Positions 6,694 to 40,282 of a stretch of 64,000 nucleotides of DNA are shown here, piece by piece (position 1 is the first letter of the stretch; every line of letters begins with the position of its first letter). Below the pieces are notes generated by a model. The model did no database searches and was not told the origin of the DNA. It saw only the letters and a program-made list of their open reading frames with translations. The position numbers were made by a program, and so were the translations under genes. The stretch is from NCBI GenBank assembly GCA_965218395.1, contig OZ244620.1, positions 1,669,268 through 1,733,267 of the forward strand. Direction: 5' to 3'. The DNA comes from an uncultured Candidatus Binatia bacterium (GTDB lineage Bacteria; Desulfobacterota; Binatia; Bin18).

Positions 6694-6747
6694 AAAGAGT
6701 AAACGTGTCCGGCATCTCATGTCTATTGGAGGACACGTTTACTCTTT
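6694..6747. repeat. family-1 palindromic element, copy a (arms AAAGAGTAAACGTGTCC / GGACACGTTTACTCTTT, 20-nt loop GGCATCTCATGTCTATTGGA), between the purE stop and the moeA start
   Basis: Perfect 17-bp inverted arms read from the sequence; four related copies elsewhere. Confidence 0.7.
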
Positions 6748-6765
6748 CAAGTCCGTTTGAGCGCC

Positions 6766-7272
6766 TTACAACGCACCTGCCTTGACACGCTCCTGTAAGC
6801 GCCGGTCTTTGTCGCGTGTCTTTTCAACCAGTTCGGCTTTGAAGGCCTGAAACCGTTCTAGCAGACCGGCGTTGCTGGTTGCCAGGATTTGAATAGCCAG
6901 CAGACCGGCGTTGCGGGCGCCATCGATGGCGACGGTCGCTACCGGCACGCCGGCCGGCATCTGGACAATCGACAGGAGTGAGTCCTGTCCGTTTAGGGCC
7001 GCGCTTTTGATCGGCACGCCAATAACCGGCAGGGGGGTATGGCCGGCAACCACCCCCGCCAGATGGGCAGCGCCCCCGGCTCCGGCAATGATGACCTTGA
7101 GGCCCCGTTCGTGCGCCTGACTCGCATAGTCGGTGGCATCGTGCGGTGTCCGGTGGGCGGACAGGACGCGGATTTCATACCCAACCTCAAACTCCTCACA
7201 GACTTTGGCCGCTTGTTTCATCGTCTCGAGGTCTGAATCGCTGCCCATAACAATGCCGATCTGGGGGGTCAT
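6766..7272 (-). CDS. purE: N5-carboxyaminoimidazole ribonucleotide mutase PurE
   Basis: [33 protein letters not shown] and VIGVPI motifs. Confidence 0.9.
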
Positions 7273-8687
7273 GCTTCCTCCTTTTCATTCCGGTCAACGA
7301 GCGCTTCCAATATATACTCCAGATGCACCCCGCGGGAGCCTTTGACCAGCATGAGCTGCGGCCCGTCGGCCTGCCGCACCAGCGCCCGGACACACGGCGC
7401 GGCCGTGGTTGCGTCGGGGAAGACGTGGGCCGGGAGCCCGGCCTGAACTGCTGCCTCGGCAAGCTGCGGGGCGTACCGGCCAACCGTCACCAGAGCGTCC
7501 GGGGCGGGTTTGAGCCCGGCGACATAGGCCCCGATCTCTCGGTGCCGCAACTCGCCGACTACTCCCAATTCGAGCATATCGCCCAAGACGAGAATCAATC
7601 GCTCGCCGGCCTGCCGAATCGTATTGGCGGTCCGCAGCGCGTGCTGCACGGAGGCTGGATTCGCGTTATAGCAGTCGTCCAGCCCGGTGAGTTGATAGGC
7701 CGGCAGGCTGAACGGGGCGAGACGACGGGGGGCGCCCTGGGCGGTCCGCAGCGTTGCGCAGGCCGTCTCCAGGTCCAAACCGTTCTCCAGCACCGCGGCC
7801 ATGGTCGCGAGGGCCGCGGGGACGCAATGGGAGCCGATGAGCGGCAGTTGCACCTGTCGGCGCTGTCCCAGGGCGTGCAGCTCAAAACGCGTCCCCGTCC
7901 GCGACACCTGAATCTGCGCGGCCCGTACCTGATTGGGCGGCTGTTCACCGAATGTGACAATCCGGCACCGGGCCTGGCGCTGGACGGCGGCCAGCAGCAC
8001 GGGGTCGTCGCCATTGATAATGACCAGCCCGTCGGGCGGCAGGGCGGCGAGCAACTCGGTTTCGGCGGCCAGCACCCCGGCCAGGTCGCCGAGCGTCTCG
8101 GTGTGTTCTTCGCTAATGGTGGTAATGACACCAATATGAGGCTGCGCAAAGCGGCCCAGCGCGGTGAGTTCTCCGGGGCCGCTCGTCCCCATTTCCAGGA
8201 CCAGGAAGTCGTCCTCCGGCGCGGCGCATAGCAGGGTCAGCGGCAGGCCGATGTGATTATTCAGATTGCCCTGGGTCGCCCGGGTGGGGCGTTGGGCGCT
8301 AAAGACCTGGGCCATCAACTCTTTGGTCGTTGTTTTGCCGTTGCTGCCGGCAATGCCGATCACTCGCGCGGCAAGCCGCCGGCGGTGCCAGGTGGCGAGG
8401 TCTTGGAGGGCGCTCAGCGGATCGGCGACGGCGATCCCGGTGGCGCCGTCGGGCGGCTCGACCGGGAAAGACGCCGAAAAAAGAAAGCCGGCCGCGCCAC
8501 TCTCCACCGCCGCCGGGATATAGTGGTGGCCATCGACCCGCTCGCCGGCCAGCGGAACGAACAACGCCTGGGGCGCGATGTGGCGCGAATCAATGCCGAC
8601 CGAGGTAAAGAGCGTCTCCGGGCGACCCCACTTCAGGGTTCCTCCGGTGGCGGTACAGACGTCGTGCGCGCGCAGTGCAACTCCCAC
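7269..8687 (-). CDS. murF: UDP-N-acetylmuramoyl-tripeptide--D-alanyl-D-alanine ligase MurF (GTG start)
   Basis: [14 protein letters not shown]-loop; [10 protein letters not shown]...[15 protein letters not shown]; 4-nt overlap with purE. Confidence 0.85.
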
Positions 8688-8802
8688 AATGGGCCAACTC
8701 TATCGAGGCGGCCCAGGCGTCGCAAGCGTACAGGTCCAGCGGTTTCTCCGGGATACGCCGTGCTCCGTTGCTCTCCAGGGCGCGGCGTGTCACCATGCGC
8801 GT

Positions 8803-10131
8803 ATGGGCCAGCGGGAAGAACAGGCCAGGACGATTGTGCAGACGCTGCGCCGGCATGGCCATACGGCCTATTTTGCGGGTGGCTGTGTGCGGGATCGACT
8901 GCTGGGCAGGCAGGCTCAAGACTTCGATATCGCCACGGATGCCCGAACCGCCGAGGTCCGGGATATATTTCCGCAGACCATCCCGGTCGGGGCGCAGTTT
9001 GGGGTTATCCTCGTTGTCCTGGAGGGCATTCCCTACGAGGTGGCGACCTTTCGGGCCGATGGCCCCTATCATGATGGCCGTCACCCGGTGGCGGTCTGCT
9101 TCAGCACGGCCCGAGAGGACGCGCTGAGACGCGATTTCACGATTAACGGCATGTTCTTCGATCCGCTGACGGATACGGTCATTGATTATGTGGACGGGCA
9201 GGCAGACCTGAACAACCGGATCATTCGGGCCATTGGGGAGCCGGCGGCACGCTTTCACGAAGATCGCATCCGCCTGCTGCGGGCCGTCCGCTTTGCCGCC
9301 CGGCTGGGCTTCGCCATCGAGCCCGAGACCTGGCGCGCCGTGGGTCAGCTCGCCCCGACGCTGACCGAGATGGCCTGGGAGCGGATTGGCGACGAGGTGG
9401 TGAAAATCCTGACCGCAGGGAGCGCCCGGGTGGGGATGACGCTGCTGGCGGAGTCGGGCCTGCTGGAGGCCGTGCTGCCCGAGGTCATGGCGCTGCGCGG
9501 GGTGGCACAGTCGCCCGATTTTCATCCCGAAGGCGATGTGTTTGTGCATACGCTCCTGGTGCTGCACCATCTCGACGCTCTGGAGCAGCCGAGCGAGAGC
9601 CTGGCCCTGGGTGCGCTGCTGCACGACATCGCCAAACCGCTGTGTCAGAGGCAAAAAGGCGAGCGGGTGACATTTTACGGCCACTGCGAACAGGGCGCGG
9701 AGATGGCGCTGGACATCTGTCAGCGTCTGAAACGCTCTCGCGTGACCTGGGAGCGGGTAGCCTTTCTGGTCAAAAACCATCTACGCCTGCTTGACGCGCC
9801 GCGCATGCGAGCGGCCACGCTCAAGCGCTTCCTGCGTCTGGAGGGTATTGAAGAACTCCTGGACCTGGCGCGTCTGGATGCCCTGGCCTCAAACGGCAAT
9901 CTTGAGGCGTATGCATTCTGCCGCCAAAAACTGCTCGCACTCGACCCCGAGGAGCTGCGCCCGCCCCGTCTGTTGAGCGGTCGGGATCTGATCCAACTCG
10001 GATTGCAACCGGGTCCGCAGTTCTCCACCATCCTCGGGGCGCTGGAGGAAGCCCAACTCGAAGGGCGGGTACGCACCCGACGGGCGGCGCTCGCTTGGGT
10101 GCAGCGCAACTGGATGCAGCCGTCTGAGTAA
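8803..10131 (+). CDS. cca: CCA tRNA nucleotidyltransferase / poly(A) polymerase-family enzyme with HD domain
   Basis: ORF 8578..10131; start inferred at MGQREEQARTIVQ. GGCVRDRLLGR...DFDIAT NTase motif, RRDFTINGMF, HD-domain HDIAKP; divergent from murF. Confidence 0.75.
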   Translation: MGQREEQARTIVQTLRRHGHTAYFAGGCVRDRLLGRQAQDFDIATDARTAEVRDIFPQTIPVGAQFGVILVVLEGIPYEVATFRADGPYHDGRHPVAVCFSTAREDALRRDFTINGMFFDPLTDTVIDYVDGQADLNNRIIRAIGEPAARFHEDRIRLLRAVRFAARLGFAIEPETWRAVGQLAPTLTEMAWERIGDEVVKILTAGSARVGMTLLAESGLLEAVLPEVMALRGVAQSPDFHPEGDVFVHTLLVLHHLDALEQPSESLALGALLHDIAKPLCQRQKGERVTFYGHCEQGAEMALDICQRLKRSRVTWERVAFLVKNHLRLLDAPRMRAATLKRFLRLEGIEELLDLARLDALASNGNLEAYAFCRQKLLALDPEELRPPRLLSGRDLIQLGLQPGPQFSTILGALEEAQLEGRVRTRRAALAWVQRNWMQPSE

Positions 10132-10339
10132 GTAGGTCGGATGAGCGGAGCGTAATCCGACAAGGACGGGCTGTCGGGTTACGCCTACGGCTAGAGCAGT
10201 TTTCAGATTGGCGTAGCGGGCGGGCGGCGCTCCAGAACCGGAGGGTGCATCCCATGCACCAGCTTCCTGGTGCGCAGGGCACACCCTACGCGCCCCCGTT
10301 GTCTGAGGGCCGGCTGGCTATACGGAATCGTGAATTGGT
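10132..10339. repeat. REP/BIME-like block of GC-rich hairpins (TCGGATTACGCTCCGCTAATCCGA, GGTGCATGGGATGCACC) between the convergent cca and phoR genes
   Basis: Its end segments recur in inverted orientation at ~21610-21766. Confidence 0.5.
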
Positions 10340-11851: not shown

Positions 11852-11883
11852 ACGAAGGTGCTGCGTTGCGTCCGGGAGCGCGG

Positions 11884-12597
11884 CTAGACCTCAAGCGCTT
11901 CCGGGTTAAATTTATACCCCACCCCCCGCACGGTCAGGAGCAGACTCGGGTTGGCATCATCCTGCTCAATGCGCTTGCGCAGGCGGCGGATATGGACATC
12001 GATCGTGCGGGGCTCGATATAGACATTATGCCCCCACACCAGATCCAGGATTTGGGTCCGGCTGAAGACGCGGTTGGGAGACTGGACGAAGAATTTGAGC
12101 AGTTCAAACTCGCGCAAACCAAGGTCGAGCGGATGGCCGTCGAGCTTCACTTCGTAGGTATCGTAGTCGATCTCCAGACGACCACGGACATACATCTGGT
12201 GCGGCTGGTCCGCCGGCGGACCATAGGTCCGTCGCAGGACGGCTTTGACCCGAGCGACGAGTTCGCGCGGGCTGAAGGGTTTGGTGATGTAGTCGTCCGC
12301 CCCCATTTCGAGGCCCAGGACCTTATCCACCTCGGAGGCGCGCGCCGTCAGCATCAGGATCGGGACGGTGGCCAGCTTGTCCTGGGCGCGTAAAGTGCGA
12401 CACACCTCAAGGCCGGACAGGCCGGGCAGCATAAGGTCGAGAATAATCAGCGCCGGCCGTTCGGCAGCAGCGAGATGCAGACTCACCTCGCCGTCACCCG
12501 CTTCGAGGACGGTAAAACCCTCGGTTTCCAGATGATACCGCACCAGGTCGCGGATGTCTTTTTCATCCTCGATGATCAGGACTTTCCGCTTGGACAA
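11884..12597 (-). CDS. phoB: phosphate-regulon response regulator (PhoB/OmpR family); probable TTG start giving (M)SKRKVLIIEDE
   Basis: ORF 11884..12684; receiver plus winged-helix domains. The 29-aa N-terminal extension in the track ORF is a translation of the palindromic repeat. Confidence 0.75.
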   Translation of the reverse strand: MSKRKVLIIEDEKDIRDLVRYHLETEGFTVLEAGDGEVSLHLAAAERPALIILDLMLPGLSGLEVCRTLRAQDKLATVPILMLTARASEVDKVLGLEMGADDYITKPFSPRELVARVKAVLRRTYGPPADQPHQMYVRGRLEIDYDTYEVKLDGHPLDLGLREFELLKFFVQSPNRVFSRTQILDLVWGHNVYIEPRTIDVHIRRLRKRIEQDDANPSLLLTVRGVGYKFNPEALEV

Positions 12598-12650
12598 AGA
12601 GGAAGCGTGTCCAGCATCTGCATGTCTATTGGAGGACACGTTTCCTCTTC
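12596..12650. repeat. family-1 palindromic element, copy b (AAAGAGGAAGCGTGTCC ... GGACACGTTTCCTCTTC) between phoU and phoB
   Basis: One G:T mismatch in the arms; loop AGCATCTGCATGTCTATTGGA as in copies a and e. Confidence 0.65.
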
Positions 12651-12697
12651 CGGCCGTCTCCGCCGGCTGCTGGTATAGCGCCATAGCCCCCTCGGTT

Positions 12698-13453
12698 TTA
12701 GACTGACTCGGGTAAGGGCGAGAGGTGGCGGATGCTCTTGCCCTTGGCCAGATAGATCACCATCTCGGCGATATTGGTGGCGTGGTCGGCCACCCGCTCC
12801 AGGTATTTGGCGATAAACAATATCCGCATGGCGCGGGGGGCGTATTCGGGTTCCTGCCGCATCTGAGACAGCATGGTGTTGAAGACCTGAGCGGTTAAAT
12901 CATCGATCCGGTCATCGCGCTGACACACACTCAGGGCCAGGTCGGGTGCCTCGGATACAAAATCGCTGAGTTTATCTCCGAGGGTCATGCGCGTATTGGG
13001 GGCGGCGGTGACATCGGAGGAAGACTGCAAGAAGGCGTCAAGACTGTCGCGCAGCATGGCCCGGGCGCCCTCGGCCATTTCGGGCAGTTCCGGCCGCGGG
13101 GCGAGGGGCGCCTCCTGATTGAGCTCGATCGCCCGCTCACAGATATTCTCGGCAATATCGCCGATGCGCTCAAGATCGGTTGAAATCCGCAGGCTGGTGG
13201 TAATAAAGCGCAGGTCGCGCGCGGCCGGCTGATGCAGGGCAAGGAGGCGGATGCAGGCCTCATCAATGGCGACATCAAGATAGTTGACCATATGGTCGCG
13301 CTCTATGATCTCCTGGGCGGTGTGCGAGTCGCGCGCGACGAACGCGGTGAAAGCGTCCCCGATCTGCTTTTCAACCAGCCCGCCCATTTCCAACACCTTG
13401 GCCCGCAGTTGCTGGAGTTCTTCTTCGTATTGTCTATCCGTATGGAGTGGCAT
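12698..13453 (-). CDS. phoU: phosphate signalling complex protein PhoU
   Basis: Two PhoU repeats (ERIGD ... ERVADHATNIAE). Confidence 0.9.
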   Translation of the reverse strand: MPLHTDRQYEEELQQLRAKVLEMGGLVEKQIGDAFTAFVARDSHTAQEIIERDHMVNYLDVAIDEACIRLLALHQPAARDLRFITTSLRISTDLERIGDIAENICERAIELNQEAPLAPRPELPEMAEGARAMLRDSLDAFLQSSSDVTAAPNTRMTLGDKLSDFVSEAPDLALSVCQRDDRIDDLTAQVFNTMLSQMRQEPEYAPRAMRILFIAKYLERVADHATNIAEMVIYLAKGKSIRHLSPLPESV

Positions 13454-13475
13454 ACTCCCTCCGCTGCTTGCCGAT

Positions 13476-14333: not shown

Positions 14334-14346
14334 ACGAACACTCCCT

Positions 14347-19393: not shown

Positions 19394-19414
19394 ACTCTCT
19401 CCTCTCTAGAGCAA

Positions 19415-19605
19415 ATCACGATGCTATGTAGCGCGTCTCTCTCCTCCTTGAGGAGGGCGGGCTTCCAGCCCGCATGGCGGCCAGGATGGCCGCCCTCCCA
19501 GGCGGGGAGCCCCCCCCATCCCCTCCCTGGCCGCTTGGTGCCAGCCATTGTCTTTCCCGACGAGCGCGGACGGGCACGGCTACAACAACTTATCGTGAAA
19601 CGCTC
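19415..19605. repeat. ~190-bp inverted repeat, left copy (IR-L), between the pstS start and the oprP stop
   Basis: ~95% identical to the reverse complement of 21293-21496; contains the internal near-palindrome GGCGGCCAGGATGGCCGCC. Confidence 0.75.
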
Positions 19606-19611
19606 TAGGGT

Positions 19612-21027
19612 TTAGAAATCGACCTGGAAACGCGCCTGGACGATGTCGGCATCGCCGCAGTGGTCGCCCATGTCGCCTTTGTAGTAGCAGTCGTCATCGT
19701 CCAACATGGCCCGCACATAGTTGAGCATGAAGCGCAGGTTGGGGTTGAGATACCAGTTGACGCCGAGGGTGAAGTTGCTCAGCTCGCCGCCGTTCATGTC
19801 CTCGTCGTTCAGGTCCAGCATGGAGTAGCGGCCCGCGAATTCCAGCGCGCCCCAGCCACCCTTGCCGTCGAAGTTGTTCTTGGGCTTGACGCGGTCGAAG
19901 GCGCCGCTGGAGGTCTTGTAGGGCCGGTGCTCACCGGTCAGGAAGAAGCTGCCGAAGATGTAGTAGCCGTTGTACCGGATGTCGTCGCCCGTGGGTCGGT
20001 CAATGAGCGCGCTCATCCACTCGAACTGTAACGAGGCCGGGCCGTAGACCAGCGCTACTTCGGGGTTGAAGTAGTCCACGTCCTCGACGTGAAACTTCGG
20101 GGTTGCCACGAACCGCGGGCCTAAATGGGCCTCAGGCCGCTGCCGCCACCGAATCGTGTTGCCCCGGTCGTGGAAGGCGTGCCGATAGGACAGCCCGAGG
20201 TGCAGGAGCTGCCGGCCCTTTTCCTGATACCAGGGCAGGACGGTCAGCCGGGTCGTGGCGTTGTAGATGCCACTGTTGCCGAAGGTCGTGCTGGTGTCCG
20301 CCGGGTTGCCTTCCCGGAAAAAGCCGAACGCCGCGGTGGCGCGCTTGTCCATAAAGGCCCGGTTCAGGCGCACGCCCAGGTTACGGCCGCTGGAGAACAC
20401 GTTGGGCAGCGAACGCTCCATAAAGGTGATGTATTTATCGCTGGTCAGCTCTTCGAGCGAGAACGGCTCCTTAAAGTGACCAACCGTGAAGTTCCCGGCC
20501 AGCGGGAGCTTCTTCAGTTGAATATAGGCATCCTTGAACGGGTCGGAGCTGGCGAAGTCGTACTGAAACTTGTACTTGATGTTGCCGTAGACGCTGCCTT
20601 CCATGAAAAACCGCGCCCGCCGGAACTCCGTACCGTCGCCGATCCGACCGAACTGCCGGCGCAGTTTTTTGTCCGTGCTGTAGACGGCCCAGTCGTTCAT
20701 GATCCGACCGCCGATTTTGAGCTTGAATTCGCCGTCGGCCGAGTCGAGCCGCAGCCCGTTCTTCCAGTAGGCGGCCAGAAAGTTCTTCTTGCCAACGCTT
20801 TTCTCCAAGCCTTCGACCTTTTGCGTCAGGCCCGAGGCGGCTTCGGCCTGCTCATCCTCGGCTTGGGCTTTAATCATCAGGTCGCGGTATTGCTGCTCGC
20901 TGATCTGCCCATTGGCTTTGAGGATATCCAGGATTTCCGCGGCCACATTCTTGGCCTGGGTAGGTCGTGCCAAAAGCAGCCCGGCCGCAACAAGGCCGGC
21001 GCAGAACGCTATTCCCAATCGTTTCAT
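19612..21027 (-). CDS. oprP: phosphate-selective porin O/P family outer-membrane protein
   Basis: Signal peptide; beta-barrel-like alternating pattern; C-terminal ARFQVDF with terminal Phe; family-typical length and motifs; GGAGGAGG RBS; placement at the head of the pst operon. Confidence 0.7.
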   Translation of the reverse strand: MKRLGIAFCAGLVAAGLLLARPTQAKNVAAEILDILKANGQISEQQYRDLMIKAQAEDEQAEAASGLTQKVEGLEKSVGKKNFLAAYWKNGLRLDSADGEFKLKIGGRIMNDWAVYSTDKKLRRQFGRIGDGTEFRRARFFMEGSVYGNIKYKFQYDFASSDPFKDAYIQLKKLPLAGNFTVGHFKEPFSLEELTSDKYITFMERSLPNVFSSGRNLGVRLNRAFMDKRATAAFGFFREGNPADTSTTFGNSGIYNATTRLTVLPWYQEKGRQLLHLGLSYRHAFHDRGNTIRWRQRPEAHLGPRFVATPKFHVEDVDYFNPEVALVYGPASLQFEWMSALIDRPTGDDIRYNGYYIFGSFFLTGEHRPYKTSSGAFDRVKPKNNFDGKGGWGALEFAGRYSMLDLNDEDMNGGELSNFTLGVNWYLNPNLRFMLNYVRAMLDDDDCYYKGDMGDHCGDADIVQARFQVDF

Positions 21028-21178: not shown

Positions 21179-21292
21179 GGCCGTTATGAATGTGTGAAAA
21201 TTCAGGAGCGGAACATATTGAATATAAATAAGAATATCGGTCGGAAGAGCGGTCCGAAGGGGAGGAATCTGGTCACCCGAACGCCGAGGCTG

Positions 21293-21496
21293 GAGCGTTT
21301 CACGATAAGTTGTAGCCGTGCCGGTCCGCGCTCGTCGGGAAAGACAAGGGCTGGCCCCAAGCGGCCAGGGAGGGGATGGGGGGGCTCCCCGCCTGGGAGG
21401 GCTCCCCGCCTGGGAGGGCGGCCATCCTGGCCGCCATGCGGGCTGGAAGCCCGCACTCCTCAAGGAGGAGAGAGACGCGCTACACAGCATCGTGAT
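21293..21496. repeat. ~200-bp inverted repeat, right copy (IR-R); carries an extra 19-bp tandem unit (CTCCCCGCCTGGGAGGG)
   Basis: Reverse complement aligns with 19415-19605. Confidence 0.75.
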
Positions 21497-22054
21497 TGGC
21501 GCGAGAGCAAATTACGGTTCTGTGTAGCCGCCCGTCATTCCTGCGGAAGCAGGAATCCAGCCCCCGCCCCCTCCGCCCGCTGGATGCCGGATCAAGTCCG
21601 GCATGACGAGAGCGCGCCAGGAAGCTGGTGCATGGGATGCACCCTACGGTTCTGGAGCGCCGGGCACCACATGAGCGCAGTGTTCAGCCTTGTAGGTCGG
21701 GTTAGCCACAGGCGTAACCCGACATCCCGGACTTGTCGGATTACGCTCCGCTAATCCGACCTACTGACTCCCAGAGGGAGAGGGATTCTTTTCTTTCCCT
21801 CTCCCCTGGAGGGAGAGGGTGGCCGAAGGCCGGGTGAGGGGGCAACGGACCCTCGTAGGGGGCTAATGACACAATATGCATCACACGTCCAAGGAGGGGA
21901 GTTTTTCCTATCCCCTCCTTGGAGGCCCGTCCCGAGCCTGTCGAAGGGGGTGGCCCTGAGCTTGTCGAAGCCTGACCTGAGCCTAGTCGAAGGAGGCCGG
22001 GGTGGGGTTCCTGTCGCATCACACGTCTTGGAGGGGGCGACGCACACGTCGCCC
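21497..22054. repeat. non-coding block packed with hairpins/palindromes (e.g. CAAGGAGGGGA...TCCCCTCCTTG; three TGTCGAAG units; GGAGGGGGCGACG...CGTCGCCCCTACTCC); shares inverted segments with 10132-10339
   Basis: Read from the sequence; no credible ORF. Confidence 0.5.
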
Positions 22055-25139: not shown

Positions 25140-25359
25140 CGAACCGCCCCCCGCACGGGCACGAGCCGACGGGCGGAACCGGGGGGCGAAACCGGGTCGC
25201 AGCGGCCTCGGACGGGGCTGACTGTACGGGGGAACTGTGCTATGCGGAGAGGTTCGTTCGGGGAGCAGCAGGGATGTCATAACGGCATACCCGTCCTTTC
25301 CGTGTGATGCACGACCGCCTTGTAAAAGGTTCCCGTACAACATCTCGCCGCGTTTGACC

Positions 25360-27811: not shown

Positions 27812-27944
27812 CGTCCAGGCTAGACCGGTTCTCGATAGTCTCTCGCCGTGCAGGGGGCTCCTGTCATGCCGGACGTGATCCGGCATCCAGAGGGCGGAGG
27901 GGTCGGGAGCCTGCTGCTCGCGAGAGCGAGTCCGAGCCCAATCA

Positions 27945-28628: not shown

Positions 28629-28630
28629 GC

Positions 28631-31813: not shown

Positions 31814-31885
31814 TCCCGTAGCACCAGCGCAAATTCCGATTCTGTGTAGCTGTCCGTCATTGCTACCCCTCGCTTCAGTGAAGAA

Positions 31886-32577: not shown

Positions 32578-32615
32578 TATCTAAGTATGATCCTAGATAA
32601 AATATGCTGTCAAGG
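32578..32615 (-). promoter_or_regulatory. putative sigma70 promoter (TTGACA-17-TCATAC) overlapped by a perfect 7-bp inverted repeat TTATCTA...TAGATAA (candidate operator) upstream of the toxin gene
   Basis: Read on the minus strand in the 105-nt hsdS-higB gap. Confidence 0.4.
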
Positions 32616-32682
32616 TCATATAGGAGACCCGGTTCCGCCCGTAGTACCCGACCGGGATGTGTCTTTACTCGCGTCTTGGTAC

Positions 32683-33933
32683 TCATATGCCGCCCTCTAC
32701 GTCAGTCAGTAACGGAGTAACAGACACCTTGCCGGTGAGGAGGTCTTGCATGAGGGCCGTTTTGAGAGAGCGAAGTTTTGTTAATGAGCCTACCTGATAT
32801 TCGTATTCATTTCTTAATAAATTTATTTGCATAATCACCTTTGACTGCTCGGCAGGCGGTGGATAAGGGACCAAATAACTACGAATATCTCCGAGGGAAA
32901 GATTTGCTCTAGCTGTCTCAACTTGCTCTCCAAGTAGTCGTTCAATGTTTTTGGATAATTGGAGATATTCGCATAGCCACAATGGTTTCACTTCATTACT
33001 TAAACGAACTGAACAAACAGCTTGATTTATGTTCGCATCACGGTCCAAGTCATAAACTGCTGATCGTGCAATTGATGCCCCAACGAGATTAACTAGAATA
33101 TCACCATACCTCAGTGCGGAGCGTTTAAGTTTTTTGTGAAAGGTATCGGAAATAAACTTTTCCGACTTTGTAATATCTAAAAAACCGACTCTCACATTTT
33201 CACTAGTAATAAATAGTATGCCTTCCTCGTGATACTTAAATCCTTGCCATGTGGGAGACTCTCCTTTAGTAACTTGAGCGGCTAGATTGCCAATCGTCTT
33301 TACCTCCCACTCCACCGGAATGCGCCCAAGTGGCGAGTCCTTGAATTCGTGTGTATCTTCGGAGCGAAGGTTTCCGTCTTTGTCGATGCCGCGCGTGAGC
33401 AGGTCTTGCATCAGGCCGGTCTTGATGCGCTGCTGCTTGGCGATTAACGCTTCGGTCTGGTCAATGGATTGATCGACTGTCGAGAGTATTTCGGCGATTT
33501 TGGTTTGTTGGGGTTTCTGATAATTGAAAAGCGAAAGATCGCCAAAGATTTCTTTGTCAACGTGCGGAATACCAGAGCCAGCCGTTTGGCCCTTGAGATA
33601 GTCTTCCCAACCTTTTAGAGCGTAATGGAAATAGCCAGTATCATAATCGGAGTTATGGCGGACCCTCATCATTGTTGACGCAAGCATCCCATCACGCGCC
33701 CTAAGAATTTCACCAGCATTTGAACCGTCCCAGAGAATAATCGTTTCCCCATCCATAACCCGTATAGCATCCGAACTTGGGCGGGCGTACTCAGGTTCCG
33801 CCTTCCCTCGTAGGAAGTCAGGCGTCAGATATCGTTCTGCTCCAAGCCCATTGTAAGAAGTCTGTAGCGGCGGTTTCCCTTTTTCTAGCGTACATACGTC
33901 CCGAAGAGGGCGAGACTGAGTAGTTGGGCTCAT
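32683..33933 (-). CDS. hsdS: Type I RM specificity subunit HsdS (two target-recognition domains)
   Basis: Two TRD halves with conserved inter-domain repeats; 4-nt overlap with hsdM. Confidence 0.85.
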
Positions 33934-36614
33934 TTGGAATACCCAAGACCTTTCAAGAATCCGTCCAGGCGATCTACTGTGGCCAACCGCGACCGTTCCA
34001 TGTCCTGGCTACTCACCGCGTACTTGCCCCACAGATTCTCAACACCCGAAACCAAGTCGCGCATTTCCGCATTAAGATAGCGTTCGAGTTCGGCGCTGGC
34101 GATGTCGTAGAGCTTCTTGAGGATAAGGTGCTTGGCTTCGTCATTGGTTAGCTGGCCGTTGATTGCTTCCAGTATCACGTCGGTCTTGGCAATGCGCTCC
34201 TCAAGTGTGGCCTTGTCCTTGTTCAGGACATTGATCTTCTTCTTGTCGGTCTTGTCGAGGGGGTCCAGCTTGGCAAGCTGGCTTTCGACCTGCTGGATGA
34301 GTTCCCGGCTTTCGGCTTTGAACCCTTCGCCGCCAAGCCGTTTGAGTTGGATTTTGAGTTCCAATTCGGTGGTCTTATTCTTCGACAAGGCTCTGCTGAC
34401 CCTGATTTGATTCTCAATCTTCTTGATGGCGGCATCCTGTGCCTTGAGGTCATCACGCTCTCGATGGGCGGATGCGCCCGCACTATCCTTGAGGTCATCT
34501 ATGAGGGCTTTCAGAGCCTTCTTGATGACTGTGGCCGTTATCTTTTCATCTTCGTTGGGTTCGTAGGCAGCCACCTCTTGCGCGGTTTCCACGGCCTCGG
34601 CCAGCTCGGTTTGGAGTTCATTGATACGGGTCTCCAATTCCTCAATGGCGTCCGCGTCGCTCTGGAAAAACGCGGCGATCAGATATTCGTCCGGGATGAG
34701 GGTGTGATGCCAGCCGGTTGAGACAATGGTTTTCAGGTCGTAGCGATTTTGCTGCCACCAGTTGACAAACACACCGGCGCTCTTGAATTCGTCCAGCACT
34801 CCCAAGGGAACGAGCTTGTCCTTGAGCGTGGTCAAAAGCTCACGCCGGACTTCCGGCATTTTCCGACCGCCGTGATTGGCGCGTTCAAGCTCGGCGAAGT
34901 CGTCACGGGCTACGCCCCACCATTCCTTGAGGGCATTTCGGTGGGTATCCAACGTATGCCCGACCGATTGGTCCACTTCGATGATGCCTTTTATGTCGGC
35001 CTTGCTTGCAATCGACTCTTTGAATGTCAGGTATCCCGGTCGGTCCGGCTGGAATAGCGTTTCGCATTGAAGGCCAAACTTGTTGAAATTGTCGCTTTGT
35101 GCCGAAACCTCACTTTCAGGGATGCCGCCGATAAGATGGGCTTGTACGTCTTCCGGTTCCGGCTCGGGCGTGTTGTCCACATAGCGTCGGATGTTCAGGT
35201 TGTAGTCGTGTTTGTCGGCAATCTCTGACTTGTCCACAAGTCGGCTATATTTCGGAATCTCGCGTTTGGTGGAAAACACGAAGTCGATTTTCTCCACGTC
35301 TTCCGGGCGCAGTTTGTTTTGATTTTTTCCCTCCGCATATTCACGGTCCGCATTGATGAACAAAATCTTGCCGCGTAAGGCATCGGGTTTGTTCTTGTTG
35401 CAGACCAGCACACAGGCCGGAATACCGGTCCCATAAAAAAGACCCTGCGGCAAACTGATGATCGCCTCGATAACATCGTCGTTTATCAACCGCTCCCGAA
35501 TCAGCTTCTCCTTACCGCCACGAAAAAGTACGCCGTGAGGCATGATCGTGGCCATGTGGCCGTCGCTCTTGAGGCTCGCCAGCATGTGCTGGACGAACAT
35601 CAGGTCGGCTTTCTTGCCGGTTTCCGGGCACCACTCTTGGAAGCGGTTGGTGAATTTCATACTGGCGCGACTGTAGTTCTGTGAAAATGGAGGATTGGCC
35701 AACACCCGGTCGAACCTGCGTATCTGCCCGTTTTGCAGGATCAGCGGGTCTTCCAAGGTGTCCCCGTTCTCGATGGTGAAGCGCGCAATGTTATGGAGGA
35801 TCATGTTCATGTTGCAGATCGACCACGTGGTGCCGTTGGGGTCCTGGCCGTAGAGGGCCAGATTGTTGGCGTTCTCGCCCTGCTCCTCAACGTACTGGTG
35901 GGCCTGGATGAGAAAGCCACCGGAACCGACGGCTGGATCGTAAATCTCGTTCCCTGCCGTTGGCTTGGTCAACTGGACCAGCAGGCGCACGACTTCCGCA
36001 GGGGTATAGAACTCGCCTCCTTTCTTGCCCGCGCTGTCCGCGAAATACTTGATCAGGTACTCGTAGGCTGCGCCGAGCAGGTCGGGGAACTCGAAATTTT
36101 CGTTGACCAGGACGAAGCCCGGCTGGTTGAAATGATCGAGCAACTCCTTCCACTTCTGATTCTCTATTTTCGTCTTGCCCTTGGCGGCGTTGAAGTCGAT
36201 GTTGTTCTTCAGCACCCCGGCCAGCGAGTCGTTCGCGTCCTCGACCGCAGCAAGGGCTTTGTTCAGCATGTTGCCGATATCGTCTTTGAGGTCCTTGAGC
36301 GCAGGAACCAAGTCACCATTCTCATCCGCCCATGTCTCGTGCCAGCGGGCACGAACGGGGACGAAGAACGTCTCGCCGAAGGCGGTCTTGTCCTCAACGA
36401 GTTGCGCCAGGAGATCAGGCTGGTCCTTGAGATGGGCGTATTCCGCTCGTACCTGTTCGCGCTTGCGGTCGAACTCGTCAGACAGCCGTTTCAGGAACAG
36501 CATGCCGAAGATGAACTCCTTGAACTCGGAGGCGTCCATCTTGCCGCGCAGAATGTCGGCGGCTCTGAACAGAAAGGATTCGAGTTGGGCTAAGGTAATT
36601 TTTTCAGTCGTCAT
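33930..36614 (-). CDS. hsdM: Type I RM methyltransferase HsdM, long form (894 aa) with a ~400-aa coiled-coil C-terminal extension
   Basis: HsdM N-terminal domain plus N6-MTase (VLANPPF motif IV, GSGGFL motif I); C-terminal half rich in heptad-like repeats. Confidence 0.9.
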
Positions 36615-36622
36615 GTGGGGGC

Positions 36623-36937
36623 TCAGGCGGCTTCATACACCACTCTGCCTTCCCGCAGGGCGGGCTTGATGATGAGCGCGTGGCTATCCTTGAATCGCTC
36701 TACATCCTCGGGGGAGACGACGATGGCATCAACCGCAGCACCGACCCCGTGCAGCTTTCGATAGATCCGAGCCATGAGATCGAGTGCATCCGCCCCTTCC
36801 TTGATGATGAGCAGGTCCACGTCGCTATTGGGACCCATGTCGCCCCGAGCGGCAGACCCGAAGAGAATGATCTTCTCCGGCTGGGCTGTTTCCACAACGC
36901 GCCGGATGATGTCGTCCAATGTCTGTCTGTCGAGCAT
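36623..36937 (-). CDS. minimal nucleotidyltransferase (MNT/Pol-beta superfamily), first gene of the RM operon; no HEPN partner found
   Basis: [10 protein letters not shown]...DVDLL NTase signature. Confidence 0.7.
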
Positions 36938-37087
36938 TCTTCAGCAGCTCTCTCTGACTGGCCTCTCTTCAAGAGAACCAAAAGAATAGCACTAAAGTAT
37001 ATGAAAATCGTAGTCTTCGCTTAACGAATCGGACCTCAAGAAGCACGGAGGTGCACAAGTCTTTGCTAACAGGTTAGATACGACAAG

Positions 37088-37115
37088 ACCCCGAGGGGGT
37101 TGGCCCTCGGGGTCT
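37088..37115 (-). terminator. stem-loop GACCCCGAGGG-ggttgg-CCCTCGGGGTC downstream of tRNA-Asn
   Basis: Perfect 11-bp stem; weak T-tract. Confidence 0.45.
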
Positions 37116-37153
37116 CACGTTCGCTGGCGAGTTGCCGGATTTGGCGGTCGAGT

Positions 37154-37229
37154 TGGCTCCTCGGGTTGGACTCGAACCAACAACCCATCGGTTAACAGCC
37201 GATTGCTCTGCCGATTGAGCTACCGAGGA
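37154..37229 (-). tRNA. tRNA-Asn (anticodon GTT), CCA encoded
   Basis: Hand-folded cloverleaf: acceptor TCCTCGG/CCGAGGA, anticodon loop CTGTTAA, T-arm GTTGG-TTCGAGT-CCAAC. Confidence 0.85.
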
Positions 37230-37232
37230 TCA

Positions 37233-37287
37233 AAAGAGTAAGCGTGTCCTCCAATACGCATACAGATGCCGGGCACGTTTACTCTTT
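37233..37287. repeat. family-1 palindromic element, copy c (loop in opposite orientation), between the recR stop and the tRNA-Asn 5' end
   Basis: AAAGAGTAAGCGTGTCC ... GGGCACGTTTACTCTTT. Confidence 0.65.
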
Positions 37288-37338
37288 AAGAGCCAGAGCG
37301 CAGTTTTAGCAAAGGCAAAAACAAGAGTAAAGGTAGGA

Positions 37339-37938
37339 TTACATCTCCCGCCGGCCCTCAATCGCCCGGCCGAGGGTGACCGCGTCGGTGTATTCCACAT
37401 CCCCGCCCATCGGAATGCCGTGGGCAATCCGACTCACCTGGACGCCCAGCGGCTTAATGACCTTGGCCAGATACAAGGCGGTCGCCTCTCCTTCGACATT
37501 GGGGTTGGTCGCAATAATGACCTCTTGCACCGCACCCGAGCGCAGGCGGTCCAGGAGCGGGGCAATCTTGAGTTCGTCCGGCCCAATACCGTCAAGCGGG
37601 GCTAAAACGCCGTGCAGGACATGATAGCGGCCGGTATATTCGTGCGAGCGTTCGACGGCCATCAGGTCCGCCGGTTCTTCGACGATGCAGATCGACTCGG
37701 CACTCCGCTGCGGATCGCGACAAATGGCACACCGCTCGCCCTCAGCCAGCCCAAAGCATTCCTGGCACAGGGTGGTCTCGGTCTTCACCACCCAGATGGC
37801 CTCGGCCAGGCCTTCGGCATAGTCTCGCCCCGCGCTCAGGATGAACATGGCCAGGCGAGTCGCGGTTTTCTCTCCTATCCCCGGCAGTCTCCCCAACTCT
37901 TGGACCAGGCGAGCCAGGGCGGGGGTCAGCATCGTCAT
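37339..37938 (-). CDS. recR: recombination protein RecR
   Basis: HhH motif LPGIGEKTA, C4 zinc finger CQEC...CAIC, Toprim domain. Confidence 0.9.
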   Translation of the reverse strand: MTMLTPALARLVQELGRLPGIGEKTATRLAMFILSAGRDYAEGLAEAIWVVKTETTLCQECFGLAEGERCAICRDPQRSAESICIVEEPADLMAVERSHEYTGRYHVLHGVLAPLDGIGPDELKIAPLLDRLRSGAVQEVIIATNPNVEGEATALYLAKVIKPLGVQVSRIAHGIPMGGDVEYTDAVTLGRAIEGRREM

Positions 37939-37960
37939 ACATCCCTCGTCATCACTGGGC

Positions 37961-38278
37961 TCACGCGGTCAGCCCAGGAATCTTGAGCCCGCCGGTGACT
38001 TTTCCCATTTCAGTGGCCATCATGTTCTGGGCTTGCCGAATGCCCTCGTTCACCGCGGCGGTAATGAGGTCTTGCAGCATTTCGACATCGTCGGCTGAGA
38101 CCACGGCCGGATCAATCCGTAGCGCAACGAGCTCCAACTTGCCGTTCACCGTCGCCCTGACCATACTGCCCCCGGCCGAGGCTTCGACCGTCTTTTTCCC
38201 GGCCTCTTCCTGAATCTGAGCCAGTTTGGCCTGCAACTGCTGGGCCTGCTTCATCATATCTCCCATATTGGGTGCCAT
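37961..38278 (-). CDS. ybaB: nucleoid-associated protein YbaB/EbfC
   Basis: ORF 37961..38431. Start at MAPNMGDMMKQAQQLQAKL with GGAGG 7 nt upstream; the longer extension reads through repeat copy d. Confidence 0.85.
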   Translation of the reverse strand: MAPNMGDMMKQAQQLQAKLAQIQEEAGKKTVEASAGGSMVRATVNGKLELVALRIDPAVVSADDVEMLQDLITAAVNEGIRQAQNMMATEMGKVTGGLKIPGLTA

Positions 38279-38310
38279 GCTGTGTCCTCCACTCTGCGTC
38301 TGTGTGACGG

Positions 38311-38364
38311 AAAGAGTAAACATGTCCTCCAAAAACATACAGATGCTGGACACGTTTACTCTTT
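38311..38364. repeat. family-1 palindromic element, copy d, between dnaX and ybaB
   Basis: AAAGAGTAAACATGTCC ... GGACACGTTTACTCTTT. Confidence 0.65.
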
Positions 38365-38381
38365 GGCGCAGTCTGCCGTGT

Positions 38382-40166
38382 CTAGGTTCCGCTTGCTCTC
38401 GACGTCCGCTTTGTCTGGATTTCTCCGCCAAGAATGTCCAGCGCGGTTCTGACGAGAGGGTCTACCGAGCCTGCCGAGTCCTGGGTGCTCTTGGGCGGCC
38501 GGCCTTCCTCCCCTGCTGGTGAGCCGGGCTGTTGTGTGGCCGGCCCGGGTCTGTCCTTTTGCACCTCAACGCTGAGCCTGCGTCCGAAAAACTGTTCGGC
38601 AGACTCCTCCAAAACGGTCCGATTCTCTTGGCGCAACAACTCTTTCAGATAGGGGTCCTTGTCCACGCCAATCTGTAAAGCGGTTGGGGTCAGGTCGAGC
38701 AAATAGCCCGCCTTCAGGGCAAAAAAGAGCGATATTTTCCTGCTCCGCACCGTCGCCAGAAAGCCGTCCCACTGCTCGCCCTGTTCCAGGTGTTCTACGG
38801 TACCGCTCGTAACAGGCGCCGACACAGGCACGGCGGCAGGATCGGGGGGGGGAGCGGGCTGAGCTGCCTCCTCGGCTTGTGGCACTGTGGTTGGGGGCGT
38901 ACTCAGGTCGGTAGAGTCCTTTGAGTCCTTTGAGTCCTTGAGACCCGAAGGCCCAATAGACCCAGCTGAGGCGGCAGGTCGAAAGCGCTGCTGTCTTGTC
39001 GGGGCCGGGCGGCTACCGCTGCCGAATTGGTGTTGCAACTCTTCCAGTGTGGCCAGGGCTTCCTGAATCGGGAGCACCGGCGGCTGACTGGCCAGCTTGA
39101 CCAGCGCCATCTCAATGACGAGCTGGGTATAGGCCGACTTCCGCACGGCTTCTTCCGTCTCCAACAGCGAGGCAAAGAAGCGCTGGAGATCTTCTCGTGA
39201 GCGCAGGGCGGCCTGTTTGCGGACGATCTCAACCTCGTGATCGGGCAGATCGGCCAGAATAGACACGTCAGCACTTACTTTGGCAACCACGAGATCGTGG
39301 AAGTGGGTGAGCAGATCGTGACACAGCCGACGCGGGTCATAGCCGTATTGGTACAGATCCCCGGTCAGCCGGAGCACCTGAGCCGGGTCTTCGGCCAGGA
39401 TCGCCTCAACCACCCGAAACAGGGCCTGGCGGTCGGCCACGCCCAGGGCGTCTCTGACCGCCGTCTCATCGACCCGGCCGTTGCTCCACGCCACCACCTG
39501 GTCGAGGAGCGATTCGGCATCGCGCAGGCTCCCGTCGGCCTCCCGCGCCAGCAGGGCCAGCCCGGCCTCATCGCACTCAAAGCCTTCGGCCTGGGTGAGG
39601 TGCCGGAGTTGCTGTATGAGGTCGCGCAGGGGGATGCGCTTGAAGTCGTAGCGCTGACAGCGCGACAGAATCGTCTGCAAAATTTTATGCGATTCCGTGG
39701 TCGCAAAAATGAATTTGACATGCGCCGGCGGCTCTTCCAGGGTTTTCAGCAGGGCGTTGAAGGCGGCATTTGAGAGCATGTGGACTTCGTCGATAATGAC
39801 CACCCGAAAACGGCCCGTGGCCGGTCGATACTGCACCCCTTCGGTCAAATCTCGCACATTGTCCACGCCGGTATGCGAGGCGCCGTCGATTTCCAGGACG
39901 TCGATGGCGCTGCCGTTGGTGATCTCCTCGCACTGGCTACAGGCGTTACACGGGTCCGGCGTCGGCCCCTGTTCACAATTCAGGGCTTTGGCCAAGAGCC
40001 GGGCGGTGGTCGTTTTGCCCACCCCGCGCGGCCCGGTAAACAGGAAGGCGTGCGCCACGCGCTCGCTGCGGATGGCATTCCGCAAGGTGCGCGTGACATG
40101 TTCCTGCCCAATGACGTCGTCGAACGTCTGAGGGCGCCACTTCCGGGCAAGAACGAGATAGCTCAT
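38382..40166 (-). CDS. dnaX: DNA polymerase III subunits gamma/tau
   Basis: GPRGVGKTTTAR Walker A, zinc module CNACSQCEEI, SRC motif; the proline-rich C-terminal linker carries an in-frame repeat insert (GLKDSKDSKDSTD). Confidence 0.9.
   Translation of the reverse strand: MSYLVLARKWRPQTFDDVIGQEHVTRTLRNAIRSERVAHAFLFTGPRGVGKTTTARLLAKALNCEQGPTPDPCNACSQCEEITNGSAIDVLEIDGASHTGVDNVRDLTEGVQYRPATGRFRVVIIDEVHMLSNAAFNALLKTLEEPPAHVKFIFATTESHKILQTILSRCQRYDFKRIPLRDLIQQLRHLTQAEGFECDEAGLALLAREADGSLRDAESLLDQVVAWSNGRVDETAVRDALGVADRQALFRVVEAILAEDPAQVLRLTGDLYQYGYDPRRLCHDLLTHFHDLVVAKVSADVSILADLPDHEVEIVRKQAALRSREDLQRFFASLLETEEAVRKSAYTQLVIEMALVKLASQPPVLPIQEALATLEELQHQFGSGSRPAPTRQQRFRPAASAGSIGPSGLKDSKDSKDSTDLSTPPTTVPQAEEAAQPAPPPDPAAVPVSAPVTSGTVEHLEQGEQWDGFLATVRSRKISLFFALKAGYLLDLTPTALQIGVDKDPYLKELLRQENRTVLEESAEQFFGRRLSVEVQKDRPGPATQQPGSPAGEEGRPPKSTQDSAGSVDPLVRTALDILGGEIQTKRTSRASGT
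38908..38963. repeat. family-2 dispersed repeat copy (TCGGTAGAGTC CTTTGAGTC CTTTGAGTC ... CCCAATAGACCC) inside the dnaX linker coding region
   Basis: Shares the TCGGTAGAGTC, GAGTCCTTTG and CCCAATAGACC blocks with copies at 45028-45136 and 48951-49039. Confidence 0.5.
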
Positions 40167-40234
40167 ACCATAGCCGACGGTTTGGGGTTGTCCGGTGTGC
40201 TACGCCGGGGTGTCACTCTCCCCACGCGGTGTCA

Positions 40235-40282
40235 AGAGTAAACGTGTCAACATCTGCATGTTTGAGGACACGTTTACTCTTT
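40235..40282. repeat. family-1 palindromic element, copy e, in the dnaX 5' leader
   Basis: AAGAGTAAACGTGTC ... GGACACGTTTACTCTTT, loop AACATCTGCATGTTTGA. Confidence 0.65.

Follow-up and report, generated by a model that had tools for sequence, protein, structure and literature searches.

The question raised by this locus is whether five short palindromes, spread over a 64,000-nt stretch of DNA (the window) from an uncultured Candidatus Binatia bacterium, belong to the genes that they accompany or are copies of a mobile repeat. Binatia form an uncultured, globally distributed lineage of which only metagenome-assembled genomes are known. An earlier note, made from the sequence alone, had described the palindromes as dispersed copies of one element with 17-bp arms and a 20-nt loop, each located in an intergenic gap within about 5-40 nt of the downstream start codon. 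A search of the window with the arm AAAGAGTAAACGTGTCC (up to 3 mismatches) gave 10 matches, which form five inverted pairs (0.11 matches in shuffled sequence), and a covariance model applied with filters off returned exactly five copies and nothing else at E≤1 (Table 1). The five positions of the earlier note were thereby reproduced, except that copy 5 starts at 40233 and not at 40235. The best strands in the covariance model bear out that the loop occurs in both orientations, and Pfam agrees with the identities of the neighboring purE, moeA, phoU, phoB and dnaX genes.

Table 1. Copies of the element and related sites in the window
Feature	Position	Best strand	Description
Copy 1	6694..6747	+	54 nt; perfect 17-bp arms; 77.9 bits (covariance model)
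Copy 2	12596..12650	+	55 nt; in-frame within phoB, N-terminal tail
Copy 3	37233..37287	-	55 nt; 51 nt past recR stop
Copy 4	38311..38364	-	54 nt; dnaX-ybaB gap
Copy 5	40233..40282	+	50 nt, loop shortened; SRP RNA-dnaX gap
108-bp segment	45028..45135		nuoJ-nuoK gap; bounded by 8-bp ends AAAGAGTA...TACTCTTT
Empty site	63214..63215		filled in three other species (L013, L045, L053) by a 54-nt copy inserted precisely here

The proposed placement in gaps, 5-40 nt before a start codon, holds for copies 1 and 4 and fails for the other three. Copy 1, in the purE-moeA gap, lies 18 nt past the purE stop codon (6766-6768) and is separated by 3 nt from the moeA Shine-Dalgarno sequence (6685-6690), with the moeA ATG (6677) 16 nt away. 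Copy 4 follows the dnaX stop codon (38382-38384) by 17 nt and precedes the ybaB ATG (38278) by 32 nt. Copy 2 had been assigned to the phoU-phoB gap, and the reading frame running through it had been taken for an artificial extension; this extension is in fact the real phoB ORF, with its ATG at 12684 and its Shine-Dalgarno sequence GAGGGGG directly after the phoU stop codon (12698-12700). The copy encodes about 18 additional PhoB residues (RGNVSSNRHADAGHASSL), which are missing from PhoB homologues of 248-251 aa. Copy 3 stops 3 nt short of the 5' end of mature tRNA-Asn (37154-37229) and is probably part of the pre-tRNA leader, since a conserved promoter-like TTTACN-N17-TAAAAC stands upstream of it. 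Copy 5 lies 24 nt past the SRP RNA gene (40307-40404, minus strand), and the dnaX ATG (40166) is found 66 nt on.

A collection-wide pattern search, of the kind suggested by the earlier note, revealed the element in at least 108 further 8-kb blocks from about 20 Binatia species genomes. A fuzzy search collected 156 copies, most often 54 nt long (97/156). The element is composed of two 17-bp inverted arms, AAAGAGKAAACGTGTCC and GGACACGTTTMCTCTTT, and a loop of ~20 nt that is asymmetric and less conserved than the arms (consensus AGCATCTCATGTCTATTGGA); its boundaries are sharp, information content dropping from ~2 bits to ~0 at both ends. By inspection, the 17-nt arm has no internal self-complementarity beyond ACGT. 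The loop consensus is common to non-orthologous copies, which implies their common descent. Solo arms are decayed full copies, and no longer element with identical ends and an ORF was seen. The 108-bp nuoJ-nuoK segment does have the same 8-bp ends, as had been noticed before, and its interior differs from the element and is internally repetitive; we regard it as a rare non-canonical variant (2 such end pairs in 921 kb versus 0.4 expected). The element gave 0 matches in 462 kb from other lineages and 0 in viral contigs, and no Rfam family matched it.

The most direct evidence comes from orthologous sites with and without the element. In 27 filled/empty comparisons, representing about 16 such sites, the 51-55-nt unit is the sole difference between the two alleles. 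The sites of window copies 2-5 are all empty in some relatives: in L189, which retains the same phoB Shine-Dalgarno sequence and ATG (copy 2); in L104 and L109-L113 (copy 3); in L109-L112 (copy 4); and in L111, with the tRNA-Ser/SRP RNA/dnaX synteny unchanged (copy 5). The window also provides the reciprocal case, an empty site (Table 1) at which the flanking bases are neither duplicated nor lost in the filled species. Throughout the family, a given orthologous site may be filled in one species and empty in another. The copies are thus inserted repeats, and the notion of conserved gene-specific leaders, against which the earlier note had set its own proposal, fails.

No target-site duplication of 2-10 bp was detected above chance, even when the boundaries were shifted by up to 4 nt, and the approximately 16 independent empty sites yielded no consensus target motif. 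The information content of the flanks does not exceed 0.36 bit, and this signal stems from a mosaic subfamily (see below). Insertion 3' of a conserved tetra- or pentanucleotide, as in the IS200/IS605 type, was not observed for the element, and no RAYT/IS200-like ORF (HUH...Y motif) was found in the 0.92 Mb covered by the 108 loci and the window, about 1% of the genomes concerned. Within the species, a strain-level check of copies 3-5 (around dnaX-ybaB-recR) found them in 10/10 contigs, that is, fixed, a point against the mobile reading in that it gives no sign of recent movement. Overall, we consider it likely (at a probability of roughly 0.78) that the five palindromes in the window belong to a mobile, non-autonomous hairpin repeat specific to the Binatia clade. 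Such an element would be mobilized in trans. The enzyme involved, for which a RAYT-like HUH/Y1 transposase is the leading candidate, would recognize the conserved arms or the hairpin on single-stranded DNA and make no staggered cuts when joining.

Folded as RNA, the sense strands of the five window copies reach -18 to -26 kcal/mol (-25.7 kcal/mol for copies 1 and 4), with z-scores of -4 to -7 for four copies (-6.5 for copy 1) and -2.2 for copy 3, in agreement with the stable structure originally postulated. Arm pairing is maintained through compensatory changes: at arm position 7, for example, 82 copies have T:A, 61 have G:C and 10 are discordant; double changes affect 7 of the 17 arm pairs, a number reached by 0 of 500 shuffles; and within orthologous groups T:A and G:C replace each other jointly. 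Among 33 orthologous pairs, 9 have the loop inverted in place, as do 5 of 14 orthologous groups; the alignment of L014, L067 and L097 shows this directly. Such inversions, found between species, account for the two loop versions and imply pairing of, or recombination between, the arms in vivo.

The loops of orthologous copies are at least as well conserved as the DNA around them, which is mostly coding (90% vs 86%, p=0.013), in a comparison that is biased because the sample was conditioned on intact arms. This conservation could reflect a host-level constraint. A different possibility is that the element is not a RAYT passenger but a distinct, self-maintaining hairpin that inserts seamlessly by an undescribed mechanism, needing neither duplication nor target motif nor a transposase nearby, that through its 18-codon, largely stop-free design colonizes the coding parts of essential genes in hosts other than Rickettsia, and that is then kept under constraint; the loop conservation, the double changes and the flips would in that case mean that hairpin-templated repair or a host function acts on it. 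We hold this possibility to be rather unlikely.

The distribution of the copies relative to genes is uneven. Most are intergenic, with a marked preference for positions 5-40 nt upstream of start codons, just before the Shine-Dalgarno sequence, and they occupy 37 divergent versus 15 convergent gaps. RNA-gene leaders also host copies, and at the ends of genes the TAA of the arm often supplies the stop codon. A minority is intragenic and in-frame: the 54 nt correspond to 18 codons, usually read as RGNVSS...DTFPL, a frame that is stop-free in both orientations. For example, two gaps of 17-18 residues in the alignment with E. coli MnmG are in-frame inserts, and further inserts were found in a CoA-transferase, MnmE, YfiH, Mrp subunit A, BamD, a HEAT protein and DUF3047; Pfam domains (CoA_transf_3, MnmE, Cu-oxidase_4, Mrp subunit A and others) flank or span the insert. 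Orientation relative to transcription is modestly biased (55:35, p=0.045; 48:27, p=0.02 with orthologues removed), and this bias and the proximity to start codons are compatible with some selected effect. Copies are retained at any place that tolerates them (pre-Shine-Dalgarno gaps, RNA leaders, gene ends and, in-frame, coding sequences). The transcribed hairpin, at roughly -25 kcal/mol, would probably affect mRNA processing or stability as a side effect, a by-product rather than the reason for its existence.

The strongest competing explanation reverses this last point and regards the hairpin as a host cis-regulatory RNA structure (an intercistronic RNase III site, a stabilizer of mRNA 5' or 3' ends, or an attenuator) kept for its function, as the earlier note had considered. 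The folding energies, the position of many copies just ahead of start codons, the compensatory changes, the fixation of copies 3-5 and orthologous loops no less conserved than their flanks are all consistent with it, as is the precedent of the Correia and ERIC elements, which act on mRNA via RNase III or RNase E (PMC10969869). However, the element occurs in both orientations and flips in place, which rules out a role for the loop sequence at the RNA level; sense-strand mismatches show no excess of G:U (38) over A:C (35); copies are also found between convergent genes, within coding sequences and in the leader of a pre-tRNA; the same operon junctions in close relatives do without the element; and the flanking genes are unrelated in function. 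No promoter or terminator consensus was found at the elements, and a scan of 36900-40600 for intrinsic terminators flagged none of copies 3-5, which have a 20-nt loop, an A/T-rich stem base and no T-run after it. With nothing specifically in favor of a regulatory role, we judge this explanation improbable.

It is less probable still that the palindrome is a DNA site for a host protein, its arms serving as half-sites of a regulon operator or of an architectural site of the nucleoid or gyrase/IHF type, a role that has been proposed for BIMEs. Highly conserved arms around a variable loop, the preserved symmetry and the enrichment near gene 5' ends, including the excess of divergent gaps, would all fit such a site, but the search pattern itself imposes part of the arm conservation, the spacers of non-orthologous copies are related by descent, which is unexpected for independent operators, and an arrangement of 17+17 bp around a 20-bp spacer is not typical of operators. 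Moreover, copies are found inside ORFs and at stop codons, and close species differ in occupancy at housekeeping operons. A classical MITE of the cut-and-paste type, descended from an insertion sequence with a DDE transposase, is an equally poor candidate; it would account for 17-bp terminal inverted repeats at the exact ends, small size, high copy number, presence/absence polymorphism and the 108-bp element with the same 8-bp termini, but is disfavored by the missing target-site duplication, by alleles that differ by the element exactly and by the lack of a longer, ORF-bearing form with the same ends. Thus, of the REP/BIME- or MITE-like character first suggested, the dispersed palindromic repeat stands and the classical MITE with TIR-like ends does not.

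Among known systems, the mobile hairpin repeat that we favor is closest to two. In the REP/REPIN-RAYT system of Pseudomonas and Enterobacteria, the repeats flank a single-copy gene for RAYT (REP-associated tyrosine transposase, Y1/HUH type) in the same genome, an arrangement that was not seen for the element in the 0.92 Mb sampled (about 1% of the genomes concerned). REP/REPINs are likewise short, abundant and mostly extragenic palindromic repeats, inserted without target-site duplication and inherited vertically, with orthologous copies across species; like the element, they carry two highly conserved inverted ends around a more variable spacer and fold into a hairpin in which compensatory changes are common (PMC3116915). 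In contrast to a REP, the arm of the element is not a small imperfect palindrome and has no GTAG-type head, and, unlike in REP/REPINs, the whole unit is only 54 nt long and colonizes coding sequences in-frame. The latter property is shared with the RPEs of Rickettsia, palindromic repeats with no known transposase that are found in-frame in unrelated housekeeping genes and translated as an extra peptide (PMC10969869). RPEs are about 100-150 bp long and belong to an obligate intracellular alphaproteobacterium, whereas the element has 54 nt (18 codons), is mostly intergenic and resides in free-living Binatia; because of these differences in length and host, homology to any of RPE-1 to RPE-10 is unlikely.

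The comparison with BIMEs (bacterial interspersed mosaic elements), also made in the earlier note, applies to a subfamily that forms part of a mosaic with other small palindromic units: the element is preceded by CCCCTCYTGGGAGGG and followed by GTGCCGCG..AGCGGCGGGGTGGGTT, flanks common to about 20 copies, and often adjoins AACCCACCCCGGCC...GGCCACCCCTCC. The mosaic also occurs without the element, and its units bear no sequence relationship to the PU/REP motifs of the E. coli BIMEs. The Correia (Neisseria) and ERIC/IRU (Enterobacteria) MITEs resemble the element as small, co-transcribed and occasionally intragenic inverted repeats that form RNA hairpins, with documented processing by RNase III or RNase E (PMC10969869), but are 100-150 bp long and generate target-site duplications (TA for Correia), which the element does not. 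Overall, we regard the element as a new, previously undescribed REP/REPIN- and RPE-like mobile hairpin family.

Extrapolating from 5 copies per 64 kb, a Binatia genome may hold an estimated few hundred. Gene calling is affected, through false 5' extensions, stop codons supplied by the element and 18-residue inserts in proteins such as PhoB, MnmG and MnmE, and the presence or absence of individual copies provides candidate markers for separating species within the clade. The family represents a second, phylogenetically remote case of palindromic DNA colonizing coding sequences in-frame, and its many clean filled/empty pairs, together with the in-place loop inversions, form a workable body of data for studying the movement and maintenance of seamless hairpin elements.

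A search of the window with the arm AAAGAGTAAACGTGTCC at up to 3 mismatches returned 10 matches that form five inverted pairs (shuffled sequence gave 0.11), and a covariance model built from 61 family members and run on the window with filters off recovered exactly the same five copies at E≤1 and no others. The five palindromes (two 17-bp arms around a loop of ~20 nt) described in an earlier note are thus real, and their best strands show that both loop orientations occur in the window. Folding of the copies as RNA read in the direction of the neighbouring minus-strand genes bore out the expected stable RNA hairpin, with energies of −18 to −26 kcal/mol and z-scores of −4 to −7 for all but copy 3, which has two mismatches and a z-score of only −2.2. 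The identities of purE, moeA, phoU, phoB and dnaX were confirmed with Pfam.

Positions in the window of the element copies and of other features discussed (for copies 1–5 the strand is the best strand)
Feature	Position	Strand	Setting or evidence
Copy 1	6694–6747	+	18 nt after purE stop, 3 nt before moeA Shine-Dalgarno
Copy 2	12596–12650	+	inside phoB
Copy 3	37233–37287	−	51 nt after recR, 3 nt before mature 5′ end of tRNA-Asn
Copy 4	38311–38364	−	17 nt after dnaX stop, 32 nt before ybaB ATG
Copy 5	40233–40282	+	24 nt after SRP RNA gene, 66 nt before dnaX ATG
tRNA-Asn	37154–37229	−	Rfam, ARAGORN
SRP RNA gene	40307–40404	−	Rfam, ARAGORN
tRNA-Ser	40416–40502	−	Rfam, ARAGORN
108-bp segment	45028–45135		nuoJ–nuoK gap
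Inverted repeats (~200 bp)	19404–19608 / 21290–21507		95–96% identical
Phosphate-selective porin gene	19612–21027		Porin_O_P
Repeat pair	10126–10275 / 21612–21770		
Repeat pair	21560–21613 / 27857–27910		
9-nt unit run	38898–38948		inside dnaX
9-nt unit run	45036–45086		interior of 108-bp segment
9-nt unit run	48950–48982		
67-nt direct repeat	1776–1842 / 5426–5492		94% identical; overlaps 3′ ends of ORF 1842–2363 and moeA (stop 5439)
Tandem repeats (~390–405 bp)	24241–25021		79–82% identical; within 731-aa ORF 23148–25343

The proposal that every copy lies in a short gap near a gene start holds for copies 1 and 4, while the context of the other three had to be corrected. Copy 2 does not occupy a phoU–phoB gap. 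It is an in-frame insertion in phoB rather than a spacer between the two genes, because a good Shine-Dalgarno sequence (GAGGGGG) and the phoB ATG at 12684 directly follow the phoU stop, the predicted PhoB has 266 residues (~18 of them encoded by the copy) versus 248–251 in homologues with the same short N-terminal tail, and a relative with an 88% identical PhoB shares the Shine-Dalgarno and ATG and lacks the element. Copy 3 is probably part of the pre-tRNA leader of tRNA-Asn, as it lies downstream of a promoter-like motif kept in relatives.

Evidence that the element is an inserted unit comes from the comparison of filled and empty sites, obtained by fusing the sequences on either side of each copy and seeking the product in other genomes. 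The 27 clean comparisons (~16 independent sites) differ by exactly a 51–55-nt unit, with nothing else gained or lost; the junctions of these independent sites have no shared motif, and the information content drops from ~2 bits to ~0 precisely where the arms end, on either side. An empty site is found in the window, too, between 63214 and 63215, where three other species carry the element. In relatives, the syntenic stretch tRNA-Ser/SRP RNA/dnaX/ybaB/recR/tRNA-Asn lacks copies 3, 4 and 5; a RecR-based metagenome scan, which returned mostly distant lineages, provided five usable close relatives, all empty at the sites. Among contigs with an identical YbaB, copies 3 and 4 are present in 10 out of 10, and copy 5 in all 7 that reach the SRP RNA–dnaX gap, always in the same orientation. 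Copies 3–5 are therefore fixed within the species, and the occupancy of orthologous sites varies between species of the clade. The alternative that the segments are conserved gene-specific leaders is contradicted both by these empty sites and by the further copies described below.

Two side observations concern tRNA-Asn and the region next to it. In one related locus (L111, 5455–5746), downstream of recR, a group I intron (Rfam RF00028, 71 bits) splits tRNA-Asn after the anticodon-loop region, and two more (L110 and L113) have an intron at the same position, the RecR identity of these relatives being 85%; the tRNA-Asn of the window is intact. Beside this gene (~33900–37150 in the window, downstream in the same-species contigs L190–L197) the gene content differs between contigs, comprising NTP_transf_2/HEPN pairs, Eco57I-like HsdM/N6_Mtase, an rve integrase, or a DNA methylase with HTH_17, and resembles a variable island of restriction-modification/defence genes linked to the tRNA gene.

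A scan of a collection holding one genome per prokaryotic species with the pattern AAGAGKAARCRTGYC-N14–28-GRCAYGYTTMCTCTT found at least 108 8-kb blocks with the element, and among the matches listed all blocks come from ~20 metagenome-assembled genomes of Candidatus Binatia/Binatota, one of them labelled Thermodesulfobacteriota. A fuzzy search of the listed blocks and the window gave 156 copies, 97 of which are exactly 54 nt long. The five copies in 64 kb of the window, together with about one additional copy in every 20 kb of the blocks from the scan, suggest a few hundred per genome, as an extrapolation rather than a count. The covariance model had no match in RecR-bearing contigs of other lineages (462 kb), nor did the pattern in viral contigs. 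No Rfam family was found at the elements, either in the window at gathering thresholds or in two element-bearing loci at E≤1, and a search of a literature library with the four arm sequences yielded no paper and nothing relevant on palindromic repeats of Binatota.

Many genomic settings accommodate the element: 94 copies lie between tandem, 37 between divergent and 15 between convergent genes. On the gene-start side, the first in-frame start codon is 5–40 nt from the element in 73 of 176 faces, often just past a Shine-Dalgarno sequence; on the gene-end side, about one-third of the upstream ORFs enter the element, and their stop is often the TAA within AAAGAGTAA. A minority are genuine in-frame insertions within genes. 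These had to be recognized by homology, as a codon-usage classifier failed to tell real open frames from spurious ones in this G+C-rich DNA. Two inserts in mnmG correspond to gaps of 18 and 17 residues relative to E. coli MnmG; further ones are found in mnmE, a family III CoA-transferase, YfiH/Cu-oxidase_4, Mrp subunit A, the BamD tail, a HEAT-repeat protein and DUF3047, where (mnmG apart) Pfam domains flank the insert on both sides or span it. Of the 11 confirmed inserts, nine have a length of 51 or 54 nt, and nearly all are read in the frame (R/K)(G/V)NVSS...DTF(P/T)L, which is stop-free in either loop orientation. The same behaviour, in-frame insertion in coding genes, has been described for the Rickettsia palindromic elements (PMC10969869).

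The RNA function proposed in the earlier note (RNase III site, mRNA stabiliser or attenuator) found no support. The loop is antisense to transcription in 55 cases versus 35 (p=0.045; 48 versus 27 without orthologues, p=0.02), a mild bias against the sense orientation that could be explained by a Shine-Dalgarno look-alike, UUGGAGGA, which the sense orientation brings into the mRNA; orientation relative to local GC skew was not significant (p=0.41). Sense-strand mismatches are about as often A:C (35) as G:U (38), promoter and terminator scans flagged nothing at copies 3–5, and the possibility that the inner arm (GGACA, with TTGACA variants) serves as an outward −35 box was dismissed on inspection by eye, the flank profile having no −10 signal at the needed distance. 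The mild bias, the lack of a G:U excess and of a promoter or terminator consensus, the intragenic and pre-tRNA-leader copies and the empty close relatives argue that any RNA effect is a by-product.

The hairpin as such is maintained. At arm position 7, 82 copies have a T:A pair, 61 a G:C pair and 10 a discordant one, with orthologous copies that have the same site-specific loop switching from T:A to G:C in concert; in the 61-sequence alignment, 7 of 17 stem pairs have changed on both sides, a number reached in none of 500 shuffles. The two mutually reverse-complementary loop versions, both confirmed, are found exchanged at orthologous sites: the loop is reverse-complemented between conserved arms and flanks in 5 of 14 orthologous groups (9 of 33 pairs; e.g. 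locus L014 versus L067). The two versions therefore arise at least partly by in-place inversion, so that the arms must pair or recombine in vivo. The loops are 90% identical at orthologous sites versus 86% for the flanks (150+150 nt; p=0.013), which is no proof of constraint since the sample is conditioned on recognisable arms in both copies. In another Binatia locus (L022, 284–1714), two tandem paralogous FKBP-type isomerase genes each follow a copy, and the two copies have the same loop in opposite orientations. A probable history is duplication of the element along with the gene, followed by a flip.

About 20 G-type copies are part of a recurrent mosaic in which CCCCTCYTGGGAGGG and GTGCCGCG..AGCGGCGGGGTGGGTT flank the element, often adjoined by a further palindromic unit. 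A composite repeat that recurs in element flanks reads AACCCACCCCGGCC-TTCG-GGCCACCCCTCC..GGAGGGG, then ATCCCCTCYTGGGAGGG, the 54-nt element and GTGCCGCG..AGCGGCGGGGTGGGTT (loci L010, L018, L020, L025, L032–L034, L064, L068, L069, L079, L081, L083, L084, L098 and L108); its outer GGGGTGGGTT and AACCCACCCC are complementary, making the whole a larger palindrome. The mosaic, also present without the element, supports the comparison with BIMEs. The 108-bp nuoJ–nuoK segment does share the element's terminal 8 bp, as noted earlier, and nothing beyond them; non-canonical pairs with these ends are rare (2 in 921 kb versus 0.4 expected).

Other repeats in the window were recorded separately. The inverted repeats flanking the porin gene, considered as possible IS ends, proved to be mosaics of other small palindromes (e.g. 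CTCCTCCTTGAGGAGGG, GCGGGCTTCCAGCCCGC, GTCGGGTTACGCC..GGCTAACCCGAC). Since these units occur again in other parts of the window and at other Binatia loci, the genome carries several further hairpin-repeat families in mosaic arrangement. Additional repeat pairs and runs of a 9-nt unit (GTCCTTTGA / GTCTGTTGA) are listed in the table. The 67-nt direct repeat may represent a gene end that was duplicated, or else a further repeat family, and the tandem repeats lie inside an ORF whose protein therefore has repeated domains.

With regard to class, the earlier assignment as a REP/BIME- or MITE-like repeat was right in kind for its first part. A classical DDE-type MITE is disfavoured because no direct 2–10 bp repeat marks a target-site duplication at the flanks, even with shifted boundaries. 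Solo arms, considered as ends of a longer autonomous element, were all decayed full copies. The comparisons show that an exact unit is gained or lost seamlessly, that the hairpin is maintained, that inversion occurs in place and that many genomic settings tolerate the element. In the scheme that we propose, mobilisation would occur in trans, by an enzyme that works on the single-stranded DNA form of the hairpin and makes no staggered cuts. Motif screens of 0.92 Mb of sampled sequence found no HUH/Y1-like ORF, and ORFs bracketed by two copies, considered as RAYT candidates, were ordinary genes (FKBP isomerases in L022, SSB in the locus L024). The best precedent for such mobilisation is the REPIN-RAYT system, with its conserved inverted ends, variable spacer, compensatory changes and vertical persistence (PMC3116915); REP units have an internal palindrome, unlike the arms of the Binatia element. 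Overall, this is an undescribed element family, which behaves as a hybrid of the REPIN and Rickettsia palindromic element (RPE) types.
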